From the NCBI GenBank assembly GCA_964409365.1, contig CAYPCX010000007.1:18655-82654 (forward strand): a stretch of 64,000 bases of DNA, in the 5' to 3' direction. Shown piece by piece: positions 967-41,964 of the stretch. The notes beneath the pieces are model-generated. The model saw nothing but the letters and a program-made list of their open reading frames with translations. It was not told the origin of the DNA and made no database searches. This stretch comes from an uncultured Planctomycetia bacterium. GTDB lineage: Bacteria > Omnitrophota > Gorgyraeia > Tantalellales > Tantalellaceae. Both the position numbers and the translations under genes were made by a program. Position 1 is the stretch's first letter. Every line of letters begins with the position of its first letter.

Positions 967-1052
967 CAAGTACCAAGGATAAAGGAAAAAGGATACAGGA
1001 TAAAGTGGCAAGTAGCAAATGCCGAGTGTTGAGAAAATCAGGAGGAGGATTT

Positions 1053-1505
1053 ATGCGTAAACGAATAGTTGTTCTGGTATTGGTTCTTGTGTTCGGGTTT
1101 GCGGCACAAGCCTGTGCGCTGGTGGTGACCGCGAAGTCCGTATCCAGCGGTACGTATGAGGACGGTGATTATACGCCGGGCGCCGCCGGCAATTTCGAAG
1201 GGGAGTACATCGTCGACGAGGCGGGCGGTGAGGTGATCCTGGACAGGATAGTAACGAACAACAGGGAAGGCCGGTTAGAAGAAGGCGCGGAATATGACAT
1301 AACTAATATCGTTATGAGCGAAGGCCTCTCGTCGCTTCTTGTCGCCAGGAACAAGAAAGGGCAGAAGATATTCACCGCCGTGCGCGAGGACGACCTCAGC
1401 GCGGTCGAGGTCCTTATACTGGGCGAGGACTTTTACGAGTTCTGCCGCGCCGCCAACGGCAAGTTCTATCTCGAATACGGAGAGGTCACGGTAAGGTCCA
1501 GATAA
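1053..1505 (+). CDS. hypothetical secreted protein, N-terminal signal peptide
   Basis: ATG at 1053 preceded by aggaggagg RBS. N-terminus MRKRIVVLVLVLVFGFAAQACA is signal-peptide-like. No recognisable family. Confidence 0.5.
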   Translation: MRKRIVVLVLVLVFGFAAQACALVVTAKSVSSGTYEDGDYTPGAAGNFEGEYIVDEAGGEVILDRIVTNNREGRLEEGAEYDITNIVMSEGLSSLLVARNKKGQKIFTAVREDDLSAVEVLILGEDFYEFCRAANGKFYLEYGEVTVRSR

Positions 1506-1531
1506 TATGACGAATTGGCCGGAAAAGAAGA

Positions 1532-3436
1532 ATGGGAGAAAACGATATGTCTGAATCAAAAAAGGAACGGCTGACGGAAATAGAGAGCCTGCGGGAAGAG
1601 GTCCAGAAGCTCAGGGAGATAGGCCTTATCTACCAGCAGACGCTGCAGGAGTTGAAGATCAAGGAAAAGGCCATCGCGTCCTCCGTGAACGCTATCGCTT
1701 TTTTCGATCTCGAAGGGAACCTGATATATGCGAACGAAGGTTTTACCAGGATGTGGGGGTACGGCTCCGAACTGGATATCCTGGGGAAGCACGTTTCAGA
1801 TTTCTGGCAGGGGGAAGCAGGCATTGGCGATGTAATGAAGAACGTGCGCGATACCGGTAACTGGTTCGGCGAGCTGAACGCCAAAAAACGGGACGGGTCC
1901 CGGTTCGATGCCCAGCTCGTGGCGAGCGTGGTCAGGGACGACAGCGGGAACCCCACCTGTATCATGGCCTCGGTCATAGACGTCACGGACCGCAAGGAAT
2001 CCGAGGAGAAGTGGCATTCTCTTGTGCAGAACGCGCCGAACATCATCATGATCATCGACAGGGACGGGACGATATCGTTCATAAACCGCACCGTGCCCGG
2101 GTTCACCGCGGAGAACACGGTAGGCACGAAGGTCTACGATTATATAGAACCGTCTTTCCATGACGTTGTAAGGGAGACGACCGAACAGGTCTTTCGCACG
2201 AAAAAACCGGGGAAATACGAGATCGAGGGCGATGGCCCCGATGGTAACAGAGCATGGTACGAGACCCGGATCGGCCCCATAATGAAAGAGGAACAGGTCG
2301 TCGGGGCGACGCTGGTAGTGTCGGACATCACGGTGAGAAGGCGCGCGGAAGAGGCCCTTAGGGAATCGGAAGAGAAGTTCAGGACCATATACGACCATGC
2401 CATGGACGGTATACTCCTGGCCGAGACCGAGAGCAAGAAGCTCGTTGACTGTAACGACATGATGTCCAACAAGCTCGGGTACTCCCGGGAAGAGATCAGG
2501 CAGCTGAGCGTAAAAGATATCCACCCCGAGGGCGACCTTAAGCGTGTGGAAGACGTGTTTGAAAAGCAGGCCAGGGGCCAGATCATACTGGCAAAGGACA
2601 TCCCGATGCTCAGAAAGGACGGGAGTGTATTCTACGCCGAAGTGAACTCCGGCCCGGTTACCATAGAGGGGAAGCATTGTCTGATGGGTTTATTTCATGA
2701 CGTGACCGAACGCAAGGAGATGGAAGAAGCCCTGCGCCGGAGCGAGCAGAAATTCCGTTTAATAACGGAAAATACGAGCGATCTTATCGCTATCATGTCC
2801 CTGGATGGGGCATATAAATATCTCAGTCCTTCCCACAGTCAGTTGGGGTATCAACCGGAAGAGCTTATTGGAAGATCAGGCATGGATATGATACATCCGG
2901 AAGACAAAAAAAGACTCACGCCCGTGCTGGCCCGGTATTCTCTTGAAAGGATCAGGGAGATCGTCAGCAGGAGAAAAGAGGCATATGTTTACGAACACGT
3001 TGAGTTCCGTTTTCCTGACAAAAAAGGGGAATGGCACGATATGGAATCCACGGCCAACCTGATGAAGAGCCTTTCCGGGGAAGGGTATGATATATTGATG
3101 ATATCCCGCGACGTCACCAAGCGCAAGAAAGCCGAACACGAACTTAGTGAACAGAGAAAACTCCTGGACAAGACCAACAAGGAGCTGAAGTGGAAGGTGG
3201 AGGAGCTCGAAGCGGCTATAAGCCATATCAAGCGGCTGGAAGGGCTTGTGCCCATATGTGTGAATTGCAAGAAGATGCGCACCGAAGGCGGTGACCCGAA
3301 AGACCCGAAGGCGTGGATACCGCTTGAAAAGTACATTTCCGACAGGACGGACGCCAGCCTGACCCACGGGTTGTGCCCGGAATGTATAAAAAAGCTGTAC
3401 GGCGACCTTGCGCAGGGACAGGGGAAAGAAAAATAA
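1532..3436 (+). CDS. multi-PAS domain sensor protein with C-terminal Cys-rich CxxC...CPxC tail, no kinase domain
   Basis: 634 aa with several PAS/PAC-like repeats (ID(R/V)DG, DVT(D/E)RK motifs) and a coiled-coil segment. Ends with ICVNCKKMR...HGLCPECIKKLYG, a zinc-ribbon-like motif. A second possible ATG at 1547. Confidence 0.75.
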   Translation: MGENDMSESKKERLTEIESLREEVQKLREIGLIYQQTLQELKIKEKAIASSVNAIAFFDLEGNLIYANEGFTRMWGYGSELDILGKHVSDFWQGEAGIGDVMKNVRDTGNWFGELNAKKRDGSRFDAQLVASVVRDDSGNPTCIMASVIDVTDRKESEEKWHSLVQNAPNIIMIIDRDGTISFINRTVPGFTAENTVGTKVYDYIEPSFHDVVRETTEQVFRTKKPGKYEIEGDGPDGNRAWYETRIGPIMKEEQVVGATLVVSDITVRRRAEEALRESEEKFRTIYDHAMDGILLAETESKKLVDCNDMMSNKLGYSREEIRQLSVKDIHPEGDLKRVEDVFEKQARGQIILAKDIPMLRKDGSVFYAEVNSGPVTIEGKHCLMGLFHDVTERKEMEEALRRSEQKFRLITENTSDLIAIMSLDGAYKYLSPSHSQLGYQPEELIGRSGMDMIHPEDKKRLTPVLARYSLERIREIVSRRKEAYVYEHVEFRFPDKKGEWHDMESTANLMKSLSGEGYDILMISRDVTKRKKAEHELSEQRKLLDKTNKELKWKVEELEAAISHIKRLEGLVPICVNCKKMRTEGGDPKDPKAWIPLEKYISDRTDASLTHGLCPECIKKLYGDLAQGQGKEK

Positions 3437-3451
3437 AGGAGACAGTCTGAG

Positions 3452-3865
3452 ATGAGCGGGAAGGTCATATTTGTTCTGACGGTTCTTATCGCGTCTCTAT
3501 TGGCGCCCGGGTCTCTTTCAGCCCAGGGGAGAGATGAACGGTCCATGCAGAGGTATCCCGGGGGCGAATATGGTATGAGTATAGGCGGCGGGTATGCGAT
3601 GGCTCCCGACGGGGAGCTCATAGAGCCCTCAGAGTACCGCGACCCTTACATCGACACCGAATACGGGCCCCTGACCAGAAAGGGTTTTTTATTGTTCCCG
3701 GGATACGAAGTGGGCGGTTCCGCGGCGCCAAGGCCGGTCAAGGAAGAAAAGGCGAAGATAGAGGATTTCATTTTCCACGAAGCGACGACTTCCGCCGAAG
3801 AGACTACTACTACCATGCAGAGCGATCTTTGGGGAGTATATTCGCCGGGAGATGAAAGCGAATAG
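3452..3865 (+). CDS. hypothetical secreted protein
   Basis: Signal-peptide-like N-terminus MSGKVIFVLTVLIASLLAPGSLSAQG. Acidic C-terminal tail. No family recognised. Confidence 0.45.
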   Translation: MSGKVIFVLTVLIASLLAPGSLSAQGRDERSMQRYPGGEYGMSIGGGYAMAPDGELIEPSEYRDPYIDTEYGPLTRKGFLLFPGYEVGGSAAPRPVKEEKAKIEDFIFHEATTSAEETTTTMQSDLWGVYSPGDESE

Positions 3866-3883
3866 TAAAATTCCGCGCAAGTC

Positions 3884-40983: not shown

Positions 40984-41504
40984 GAGAGGTCTGGTGGACT
41001 ATAGCCGCGGCGTATGTCCTGGTTATCTATTCCACCCTTACGGTCGCGCCGAGTATATGGGAAAGTATCGATGTTTTCTTCGGCGGCAAGGCCATAATTG
41101 TCCTGTATTCTCTTTACTTCATAGCTGTCGTTTCTGTTCTGTATTATCTCATCCATGTAAAAAGAGAAATGTTCATTCTGACCTATATACTTTTTTTCCT
41201 TTTCATCGCTATCCTGTTCATGCTGACGAAGCTCGTAAAGAGTCCCGCGGAAAAGATACACTTGGCCGAGTACGCGATATTGGGAGTCATTTTATACAAC
41301 GCTTTAAAGGTGGATCTCGATGTTTACGGCGGAAAGCTTTATTTGTACGGTTCTCTCATCTGCGTTTTAGCGGGTTTTGGCGACGAAATAATACAGAAGT
41401 TCCTCCCCGGCAGGTTCTTCGGGTGGAAAGACGTCACCGTTAACGCCGTCAGTGGTATAATAGCCCTGCTTATGATCAGGTTCGTTGTCCTGAAAAAAAG
41501 TTAG
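40965..41504 (+). CDS. VanZ-like family membrane protein
   Basis: Four TM helices and the GFGDEIIQKFLPGRFFGWKDV motif typical of VanZ-like proteins. Overlaps the upstream gene by 19 nt. Confidence 0.6.
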   Translation: MEKEKLREVWWTIAAAYVLVIYSTLTVAPSIWESIDVFFGGKAIIVLYSLYFIAVVSVLYYLIHVKREMFILTYILFFLFIAILFMLTKLVKSPAEKIHLAEYAILGVILYNALKVDLDVYGGKLYLYGSLICVLAGFGDEIIQKFLPGRFFGWKDVTVNAVSGIIALLMIRFVVLKKS

Positions 41505-41525
41505 AAAAATATCCCTCAAAATTCT

Positions 41526-41554
41526 TTACAAGTTGTAAAGCTAAGTGATAAAAT
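41526..41554 (+). promoter_or_regulatory. putative sigma70 promoter overlapped by a 17-bp perfect palindrome (CTTTACAAGTTGTAAAG, 41524-41540)
   Basis: TTTACA at 41526-41531, 17-nt spacer, TAAAAT at 41549-41554. The palindrome covers the -35 element. 45 nt upstream of the receiver gene. Confidence 0.35.
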
Positions 41555-41598
41555 AAGTAACGCCGCTCGACGGTCGGTGACAGGGAAAGAAGAGCATA

Positions 41599-41955
41599 AT
41601 GCCGGAACATAGAAGAGTAGTAATAGCAGACGATAACAGGGAGATATGCGAACTGATCTCGGATGTCCTCGGACATTCGGGATACAACGTAGATACGGTA
41701 TATAACGGTTATGAGCTTTTGTCCTATCTGGAGAATAACAACCCTTCCATAATAATACTTGATCTGATGATGCCGGAGAAGACCGGCCTTTCTATCCTCA
41801 GCACGCTCAAACAGGTATCCCCTTATGCCCGTATCATCATCTATACGGGTTACCAGGAATATGAGAACAGCGTCTACGCCAGGACGGCGGACAGGTTCCT
41901 TGTGAAGGGCGGGAGCATGGAGGACCTGATCCAGGCCGTGCAGGACCTGACCTGA
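41599..41955 (+). CDS. single-domain response regulator (CheY-like receiver)
   Basis: RVVIADDNREI...IIILDLMMPEKTGLSIL...FLVKG receiver signature, 118 aa. Confidence 0.8.
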   Translation: MPEHRRVVIADDNREICELISDVLGHSGYNVDTVYNGYELLSYLENNNPSIIILDLMMPEKTGLSILSTLKQVSPYARIIIYTGYQEYENSVYARTADRFLVKGGSMEDLIQAVQDLT

Positions 41956-41964
41956 TATCCCGAT

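Follow-up and report, generated by a model that had tools for sequence, protein, structure and literature searches.

We describe a large accessory gene block lodged between queA and tgt in a 64,000-nucleotide stretch, hereafter the window, of contig CAYPCX010000007.1 from an uncultured bacterium of the phylum Omnitrophota. The window begins with the 3' 321 codons of queA (1..966), which match the Pfam family PF02547 (Queuosine_synth, 1.1e-123) at profile positions 14-322 of 322. As this match starts only at profile position 14, the window opens inside queA; a QueA of 336 amino acids identical to that of the window is present in the public protein collection (P0001), as is an identical Tgt, both on a contig of 98,926 bp. 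After the block, the gene tgt (41965-43080; Pfam TGT, 6.4e-157) resumes a core string that continues with yajC (43222-43551) and a fused secDF (43571-45799), followed by genes for a CDF transporter, recJ, recG, rsmD, coaD, pta and ackA, all recognised by Pfam. The tgt-yajC-secDF order is syntenic with the loci of several relatives (L001, L002, L161, L164, L165 and L168; such numbers denote loci retrieved from other genomes). All 38-39 genes between queA and tgt lie on the + strand, as does every window feature given below. Adjacency of queA and tgt is the norm across bacteria: among 80 loci from many phyla, picked by QueA similarity from a one-genome-per-species GTDB collection, tgt lies in the downstream flank of queA in 56 and less than 1 kb away in 54. 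The outline drawn by a first-pass annotation of this DNA is borne out by these matches, namely that queA is truncated by the window start, that tgt begins at 41965, that the two genes are usually contiguous, and that genes for regulation, polysaccharide synthesis and a product resembling ribosomally synthesised and post-translationally modified peptides (RiPPs) stand between them in one orientation, as Pfam and NCBIfam confirm. We consider it likely that the block is a long-resident, vertically inherited locus for a surface polysaccharide and a modified peptide, whose centre has been remodelled and which some descendants have deleted in part or in full.

The left junction is a spacer (967..1052) that contains a strong ribosome-binding site, AGGAGGAGG, and in which no promoter-like site was found. 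A repeat scan of 960-1037 recovered just short imperfect direct repeats (three copies, 72% identity), and the equivalent spacers of L162, L165 and L169 are 22-53 bp long and unalignable, so that the left spacer is not conserved. The first gene of the block (1053..1505) codes for a protein of 150 residues, hyp150, with a signal-peptide-like N-terminus and no match in Pfam or NCBIfam; it is placed after queA in several relatives, with orthologues 52-62% identical in L162, L165 and L169. It is followed by a gene for a multi-PAS sensor protein (1532..3436; Pfam PAS families) that is devoid of a kinase domain; in this and the related PAS proteins Pfam finds no kinase or other known output domain. 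The C-terminus of the sensor is rich in Cys (CVNCKK...HGLCPEC) and is possibly a zinc-binding output module. A fuller form of this motif, PICVNCKK...W...EKYIS...THGLCPEC (window 3230-3436), is common to the PAS proteins of L165 and L167. Downstream lie genes for a secreted protein of 137 residues, which by its translation and Pfam belongs to no known family (3452-3865), and for a receiver-only response regulator, RR1 (3963-4349; Pfam), 65% identical to its counterpart in L163.

The regulatory genes lead into a conserved module for initiation, regulation and export (4364..10183), the order of which is kept in L163 and L169 at 52-73% identity. It opens with a WecA-like glycosyltransferase of the GT4 type (4364-5437; Pfam Glycos_transf_4, 2.5e-41), for which the best NCBIfam match is WecA (TIGR02380, 3.8e-42, under the cut-off), followed by a PEP-CTERM-type ATPase (5458-6270; NCBIfam TIGR03015; Pfam AAA_22 and TniB), an HD-GYP protein (6273-7346; Pfam), a Poly_export/OPX protein (about 7343-8152; Pfam Poly_export and SLBB; NCBIfam TIGR03027), and a Wzz-GNVR tyrosine autokinase (8195-10183; Pfam Wzz, GNVR and P-loop; NCBIfam TIGR03018, TIGR03007 and TIGR01007), which scores 156.6 bits against the TIGR01007 cut-off of 108. 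The TniB and AAA_22 matches of the ATPase could be read as pointing to a Tn7-type TniB; we rejected this reading because the PEP-CTERM-locus ATPase model TIGR03015 fits better, at 201.8 bits.

The glycan assembly centre (10304..32938; Pfam) starts with genes for a Wzy-like polymerase (10304-11593; Wzy_C, 37.4 bits against a cut-off of 31.7) and a Wzx flippase (11609-13120; Polysacc_synt_3, 2.2e-87). It further includes three methyltransferases, about ten glycosyltransferases of the GT1, GT2 and GT9 types, a radical-SAM/SPASM enzyme, WbqC, PIG-L, and a DegT aminotransferase that is 75% identical in L166 and L168. Two adjacent genes (21779-24747) code for large membrane proteins of about 500 residues each with a rare family or none: one matches the LA_3751/LA_3752 putative glycosyltransferase family alone, under its cut-off, and the other, hyp502, has no family match. 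Among 5.8 billion proteins hyp502 has only two real homologues, both from Omnitrophota, one 66% identical on the L164 contig and the other 41% identical on a 58,132-bp contig that also bears a QueA and a Tgt. The gene at 24753-25448, of the GT2 type, is followed by a 324-bp gap that is taken up by a small open reading frame for a membrane protein of 97 residues (25466-25759), just short of the 100-residue threshold of the list of reading frames. With an initiating transferase, Wzx, Wzy, a co-polymerase/tyrosine kinase and an OPX exporter all present among its genes, the block has the content and layout of a Wzx/Wzy-dependent polysaccharide locus, the predicted product of which is an exported polysaccharide.

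The last 8.5 kb of the block are preceded by a promoter-like site (32928..32956) with the extended -10 element TGTTATAAT, recovered in the scan as TTTCCA-17-TATAAT with an upstream TG. The element TG(T/G)TATAAT is invariant in the spacer between the genes for DegT and a CxxC protein in the window, L164, L166 and L168, and this invariance across four genomes suggests that the peptide cassette beyond it is transcribed apart from the polysaccharide genes, as a separate unit. The cassette (32996..39848) is a divergent relative of the SynChlorMet (SCM) cassette, a computationally defined radical-SAM/SPASM peptide-maturation cassette comprising ScmA and ScmC-ScmF (TIGR04248-TIGR04252). As judged from best NCBIfam matches and Pfam, its genes code for a CxxCxxCC protein, an ScmE-like and an ScmF-like enzyme, an ScmC/HprK-like protein, an ABC exporter, an ScmD/PqqD-like protein, a candidate precursor and a signal-peptidase-I-like protein; their order fits the SCM cassette and is identical in L164, L166 and L168. 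It resembles the SCM cassette in two PqqE-like radical-SAM/SPASM enzymes with best matches to ScmE and ScmF, a PqqD-like protein with its best match to ScmD, an HprK-like protein that matches ScmC, and a small Cys-rich peptide with a faint match to ScmA. Unlike in the defined family, all best matches (TIGR04250, TIGR04251, TIGR04249, TIGR04248 and TIGR04252) fall under their curated equivalog cut-offs: ScmE and ScmF reach 219.2 and 319.3 bits against 400 each, ScmD 46.9 against 100, ScmC 20.1 against 125, and the ScmA match to the 98-residue reading frame 12.8 against 35 (E 0.1). The ScmC-like orthologues of L164, L166 and L168 carry precomputed Pfam matches to ScmC (PF27840). The cassette of the window differs further in its additional genes for an ABC exporter, a signal-peptidase-like protein, NTP_transf_5 and VanZ, and in being embedded in a polysaccharide locus.

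The candidate precursor (38800-39096), a peptide of 98 residues with seven Cys, adjoins the PqqD-like gene and has counterparts of 97-99 residues in L164 (6031-6324), L166 (6788-7087) and L168 (6565-6864). In the alignment of the four, the N-terminus is rich in Lys, a YTPP motif is present, and seven Cys residues are invariant and evenly spaced, about 10 residues apart, whereas the ScmA model spans only 49 positions. The family is rare: of 1.84 billion proteins, only 24 cluster representatives match it, and a few of these are long repeat proteins. We posit this peptide as the candidate substrate of the two radical-SAM/SPASM enzymes. The block closes with genes for an NTP_transf_5 nucleotidyltransferase (39841-40983; Pfam) and a VanZ-like membrane protein (40965-41504; Pfam; NCBIfam vanZ_1), orthologues of both of which lie just upstream of the next gene, RR2, in L164, L166 and L168.

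RR2 (41599..41955; Pfam) codes for a receiver-only response regulator of 118 residues and ends 9 bp upstream of tgt. A promoter scan places the promoter of the RR2-tgt operon at 41524..41554 (TTTACA-18-TAAAAT with TG). Positions 41524-41540 form a perfect 8+8 inverted repeat, CTTTACAA-G-TTGTAAAG, the left arm of which is the -35 box and the right arm of which is not conserved in relatives. Across 173 loci that were searched for it, the promoter motif CTTTRCAA-N14-TGATAARAT occurs once each in L161, L164, L166 and L167, just upstream of the receiver gene, and in none of the other 169; in the window it occurs once, with none expected. The site in L161, which has no block, stands about 70 bp after queA, and L165 is without the otherwise conserved promoter. 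Being kept both with and without the block, this promoter is older than the block. Orthologues of RR2, 64-76% identical, lie directly upstream of tgt in the block-free L161 and in L164-L168, and the 496-bp queA-tgt gap of L001 contains a receiver of 127 residues. RR2 thus belongs to the ancestral arrangement of Omnitrophota, in which it stands between queA and tgt, and lies outside the block. Since both RR2 and its promoter are ancestral, the accessory block extends from the queA stop codon to the RR2 promoter, at about 967-41523 (40.6 kb), which shortens the interval of 967-41964 originally assigned to it. Of the palindrome and the heptamer repeats that had been noted at the junctions, the former is real and perfect, and for the latter the left spacer has only the short imperfect copies.

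Two further roles for the palindrome were considered and rejected. It is not an attachment site, as the promoter is kept by relatives with the block and by those without it; nor is it a repeated or general operator, there being one exact site in the window, one two-mismatch match inside a gene, and an unconserved right arm. Generic promoter and terminator scans over the block returned counts near the shuffle expectation and are uninformative alone. A stand-alone receiver immediately upstream of tgt is encountered across Omnitrophota (L161 11120-11476, L165 9645-10001 and L001 11057-11440) and is often translationally coupled to tgt.

The loci of relatives, read with 10-kb flanks, place this block in a comparative context. 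The best matches of both QueA and Tgt all come from metagenome-assembled genomes of Candidatus Omnitrophota, the nearest other genomes having QueA identities of only 65-75% and Tgt identities of 77-82%. These came from the protein collection, where Tgt matches reach 82%; in the one-genome-per-species GTDB collection the best QueA is only 59% identical, and in a metagenome scan Tgt is at most 73% identical. In the simplest state of the site queA is followed directly by tgt (L002, L082 and L083, with Tgt 66-68% identical), and in the next a receiver gene stands between them (L161 and L001). L161, from a Candidatus Makaraimicrobium, has the order ruvCAB-DUF2905-SpoIID-queA-receiver-tgt-yajC-secDF-recJ-recG-rsmD-coaD-pta, and its receiver is 64% identical to RR2. 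A third state, queA-(hyp150)-PAS-RR2-tgt, is found in L165 and L167. The remaining loci have a large block. On the left side of the site L163 has the order queA-PAS-PAS-hypothetical protein-HisKA-RR1-GT4-ATPase-HD-GYP-Poly_export-kinase, L169-L173 have queA-hyp150-hyp138-GT4-ATPase-HD-GYP-Poly_export-kinase-Wzy-Wzm-Wzt, and L162 and the contig of P0005 have queA-hyp150-PAS and onward. On the right side, L164, L166 and L168 share the order DegT-CxxC-radical SAM-radical SAM-ScmC-ABC-PqqD-small reading frame-hypothetical protein-NTP_transf_5-VanZ-RR2-tgt.

At least four other Omnitrophota genomes, with Tgt 79-82% identical, therefore carry the left or the right module at the same site. One QueA (P0021, from L169) and one Tgt (P0137, from L168) lie on the same 352,902-bp contig, and hence a single genome has both ends of the block. 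The contig of L164 reaches 30.9 kb upstream of tgt, and no QueA from it is in the list of QueA matches. Between the relatives the edges of the block are conserved and its centre is variable: in L169 a Wzm/Wzt ABC export pair follows Wzy, where the window has Wzx, and the regulatory genes of the left edge vary from genome to genome. The tgt-yajC-secDF-recJ synteny is common to L161 and to the outgroup genomes from Omnitrophota and the Planctomycetes-Verrucomicrobia-Chlamydiae (PVC) assemblage (L001, L002, L082 and L083), in all of which queA and tgt are neighbours. As these outgroups have queA-tgt or queA-receiver-tgt, the block amounts to an expansion within a string of conserved genes.

Several lines of evidence bear on the age of the block and on the direction of change. 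Its genes are 44-77% identical to their orthologues, and the flanking core genes of the same genomes are 58-84% identical. The tetranucleotide profiles of its four quarters correlate with the core at r 0.89-0.92, against 0.875 between one half of the core and the other, the dinucleotide delta* is 31.5, and the GC (guanine-plus-cytosine) skew is positive without a break across the window. In relative synonymous codon usage the left, middle and right parts of the block correlate with the core at r 0.957, 0.948 and 0.863, with 0.938 within the core itself; the right module is the sole compositional deviation in the block, and a mild one. A neighbour-joining tree of concatenated Tgt, SecDF and RecJ (1591 ungapped columns, 200 bootstraps) has the topology ((((L164,L168)153, L161)198, window)191, L165)200, with L001 and L002 outside, and thereby puts the block-free L161 inside the block-bearing clade at 198/200 and 191/200 bootstrap replicates. 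Finally, between the stop codon of an intact PAS gene (9346) and the start of RR2 (9622), L167 has a reading frame of 62 codons (9397-9585), the last 52 residues of which are 65% identical to residues 140-191 of the 193-residue VanZ of L166 (E 9e-25) and 49% identical to the VanZ of the window (E 3e-14). From its sequence, this truncated VanZ gene is recognisable as a deletion scar, which indicates that the L167 lineage deleted the equivalent of window 3437 to about 41360, approximately 38 kb. Taken together, divergence, composition, the nesting of L161 and the scar of L167 lead us to conclude that the common ancestor from which the window, L164, L166/L168, L161 and L167 descend already had the block, and that some of these lineages later lost all or part of it. 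Presence is patchy among relatives that reach about 82% identity in Tgt; one absence (L167) is a deletion and another (L161) is nested.

These observations can be assembled into a proposal for the origin and function of the block. In some lineage of Omnitrophota, it would have lodged after the queA stop codon, ahead of the promoter that serves an ancestral RR2-tgt-yajC-secDF operon, and would afterwards have been inherited vertically, with its centre being remodelled and some descendants deleting part or all of it. The WecA-type enzyme would start a lipid-linked sugar, upon which the approximately ten glycosyltransferases, three methyltransferases, DegT, WbqC and PIG-L may build a repeat unit; Wzx is predicted to flip this unit, the Wzy-like protein to polymerise it, and the tyrosine-kinase co-polymerase together with the Poly_export protein to export the polymer. 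Control would be exerted by the PAS sensor, the receiver protein, the HD-GYP phosphodiesterase acting on cyclic di-GMP (c-di-GMP), and the PEP-CTERM-type ATPase. In parallel, the two radical-SAM/SPASM enzymes and the PqqD-like chaperone are predicted to cross-link the seven-Cys peptide, which the ABC exporter would then release.

Some observations weigh against this proposal. The closest relatives are only about 82% identical in Tgt or 75% in QueA, which leaves no strain-level comparison of presence and absence, and their blocks were read in parts, within the 10-kb flanks, none from end to end. The pairing of L162 with L166 is based only on a shared sample and congruent trees, and the neighbour-joining tree is built on tblastn segments of three proteins. 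With its slightly lower GC content (0.44-0.52) and a codon-usage correlation of 0.86, the right module may have joined later or from elsewhere. This module is 44-69% identical between the window and L164 and 53-77% identical between the window and L166/L168, at similar core distances, which hints at exchange within the locus. Lastly, L165, with its queA-hyp150-PAS-RR2-tgt order, shows no scar and may be a true intermediate rather than a product of deletion.

This last point underlies the alternative of a stepwise build, in which a small signalling insert of hyp150 and the PAS gene settled first beside RR2, as in L165, to be followed at the same place by the polysaccharide genes and then by the peptide cassette. 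L165 does branch below the block-bearing clade and has no visible remnant of other block genes, and the cassette differs slightly in composition and has a conserved promoter to itself. Nevertheless, the same short architecture in L167 is demonstrably the product of a deletion. The absence of the RR2 promoter from L165 likewise fits a deletion, being what is expected if it ran from the PAS stop codon to RR2. With a single basal genome, moreover, the polarity is weak, and we regard a stepwise origin as somewhat unlikely.

Alternatively, the interval between queA and RR2 might be a recombination hotspot, where the block or large parts of it were gained independently by lateral exchange in repeated gains and swaps. 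The patchy distribution among genomes of like divergence, the replacement of Wzx by Wzm/Wzt in the centre, and the differing regulatory genes at the left edge would suit such a history, as would the mosaic in which hyp502 is shared with the L164 contig, yet the right module is nearer to L166/L168 than to L164. However, the scar of L167 is proof of a loss behind at least one of the absences, L161 is nested inside the block-bearing clade, the edge modules keep their order, orientation and core-like identity, and there is no mobility machinery in the block. If homologous recombination through the conserved edges swapped the centre, this would accord with vertical inheritance of the block rather than replace it. 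Hence, we consider independent gains quite improbable.

The first-pass annotation favoured an island inserted into, or expanded within, a conserved operon. The expansion stands, given the uninterrupted outgroups; a recently acquired mobile island does not, the site being shared and the composition native. In favour of such an island, a widely conserved gene pair is interrupted by accessory content, the block is absent from L161, L165 and L167, and the right module is slightly lower in GC. On the other hand, no integrase, transposase or recombinase family was detected by Pfam in + strand reading frames of at least 100 residues from 1 to 41955, ARAGORN predicted no tRNA or tmRNA gene in the whole window, and the sole Rfam match in the window is a riboswitch at 58405, far downstream of the block. 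The absence of a tRNA or integrase gene at the junctions had already been remarked upon. Neither were direct or inverted att-like repeats above chance found between the junctions, the longest shared word being 8 nt against a shuffle mean of 8.0. Composition and codon usage resemble those of the core, and the TniB-like match is accounted for by the TIGR03015 ATPase. Furthermore, genomes whose core proteins are only 65-82% identical have the same modules at this site, at a divergence like that of the core, and the absence from L167 is a deletion with a scar. Of the checks proposed at the outset, those of composition and junction repeats thus went against a foreign island, as did that of synteny, for which the same content in relatives had been named as the outcome speaking against it. 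We conclude that recent mobile acquisition is largely refuted and, as an explanation of this block, very improbable. An assembly or binning artefact joining the end of a queA contig to an unrelated polysaccharide contig, conceivable in an uncultured lineage, has a negligible probability, as each of the two junction types is found again in assemblies that are independent of one another and stem from different samples and pipelines (NCBI, JGI, ENA and Logan), with queA-hyp150 and then block genes in L162, L165 and L169-L173 and VanZ-RR2-tgt in L164, L166 and L168, and as GC skew and composition are unbroken at both junctions.

The long-resident locus that we favour has parallels among known systems. 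Wzx/Wzy-dependent capsule, exopolysaccharide and O-antigen loci are located at fixed sites between housekeeping genes and have variable centres, as exemplified by the group 1 cps and O-antigen loci of Escherichia coli near galF-gnd and the cps locus of Streptococcus pneumoniae between dexB and aliA. The block of the window resembles them in its co-oriented genes for a WecA-type transferase, Wzx, a Wzy-like protein, a tyrosine-kinase co-polymerase, OPX and many glycosyltransferases, and in its fixed position between conserved genes with conserved edges and a variable centre. It differs in its flanks, which are queA and the receiver-tgt operon, in its phylum, and in having its own PAS, receiver and HD-GYP regulators along with a radical-SAM peptide cassette; moreover, its variation is seen only at deep divergence and not between strains. 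A second parallel is with the XrtA/PEP-CTERM exopolysaccharide loci, to which the adjacent genes for the ATPase, export protein, tyrosine kinase and chain-length determinant have their best matches (TIGR03015, TIGR03027, TIGR03018 and TIGR03007). Here, however, the scores are below the cut-offs (201.8 against 324.5, 146.1 against 180, 137.2 against 230.65 and 126.5 against 278.85, respectively), and no exosortase (XrtA/EpsH) was found among the reading frames of the block with Pfam or, for the unassigned membrane proteins, NCBIfam. Accessory DNA is also known from the queA-tgt neighbourhood of Pseudomonas, where the exchangeable effector locus and the T-PAI and PFGI-2 islands are located at a tRNA-Leu gene beside the pair and have a phage-type integrase (PMC2647930). 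In contrast, the block described here stands between queA and tgt, without a tRNA or an integrase gene. The literature that we searched on SynChlorMet, Omnitrophota exopolysaccharide and queA/tgt islands contained no earlier description of this locus and no mention of SynChlorMet.

Omnitrophota are uncultured, often ultra-small, and possibly host-dependent. Our findings identify a conserved chromosomal position in these bacteria where a large locus for cell-surface glycans resides; given its variable centre, this locus is likely to be a determinant of surface identity. Apart from its unusual phylum, the feature is of an ordinary kind, and the finding, though useful, would not surprise a specialist; for the scanning of genomes, the case demonstrates that wide separation of a conserved gene pair is not by itself the sign of a mobile island. 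Of most interest as a lead is that a rare radical-SAM peptide cassette, with a clear candidate substrate, is coupled to a polysaccharide locus in a conserved manner, and the recognisable candidate precursor makes this cassette family testable. Speculatively, the interval between queA and the RR2-tgt promoter might be a dedicated surface-structure locus in which the polysaccharide and the SCM-like peptide form one unit: the cross-linked peptide would cooperate with the polysaccharide, anchor it or prime it, the PAS sensor, the receiver and c-di-GMP would exert control, and the centre would be swapped between lineages by recombination through the conserved edges. Although we regard such a joint unit as rather unlikely, it would, if true, provide the first biological context and a clear candidate substrate for the uncharacterised SCM family.

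Two other features were encountered outside the block. In L162, a reading frame of the LAGLIDADG_1 homing-endonuclease type (408-989) lies upstream of fusA and is unrelated to the block. Far downstream in the window, the riboswitch recovered with Rfam is of the c-di-GMP-I-GGC type (58405-58517, 66.2 bits, above the gathering score) and lies directly upstream of a giant open reading frame (58617-63998+) that has a signal- or transmembrane-like start, MGSYTRSNSFMKIISVAVAVIFLW..., and is still open past about 1,790 codons at the window end. This region is lower in GC (0.45) and, of the whole window, the least like the core in composition. The giant reading frame probably codes for a surface protein or adhesin that is controlled by c-di-GMP; the block too has a link to this second messenger, in its HD-GYP phosphodiesterase.

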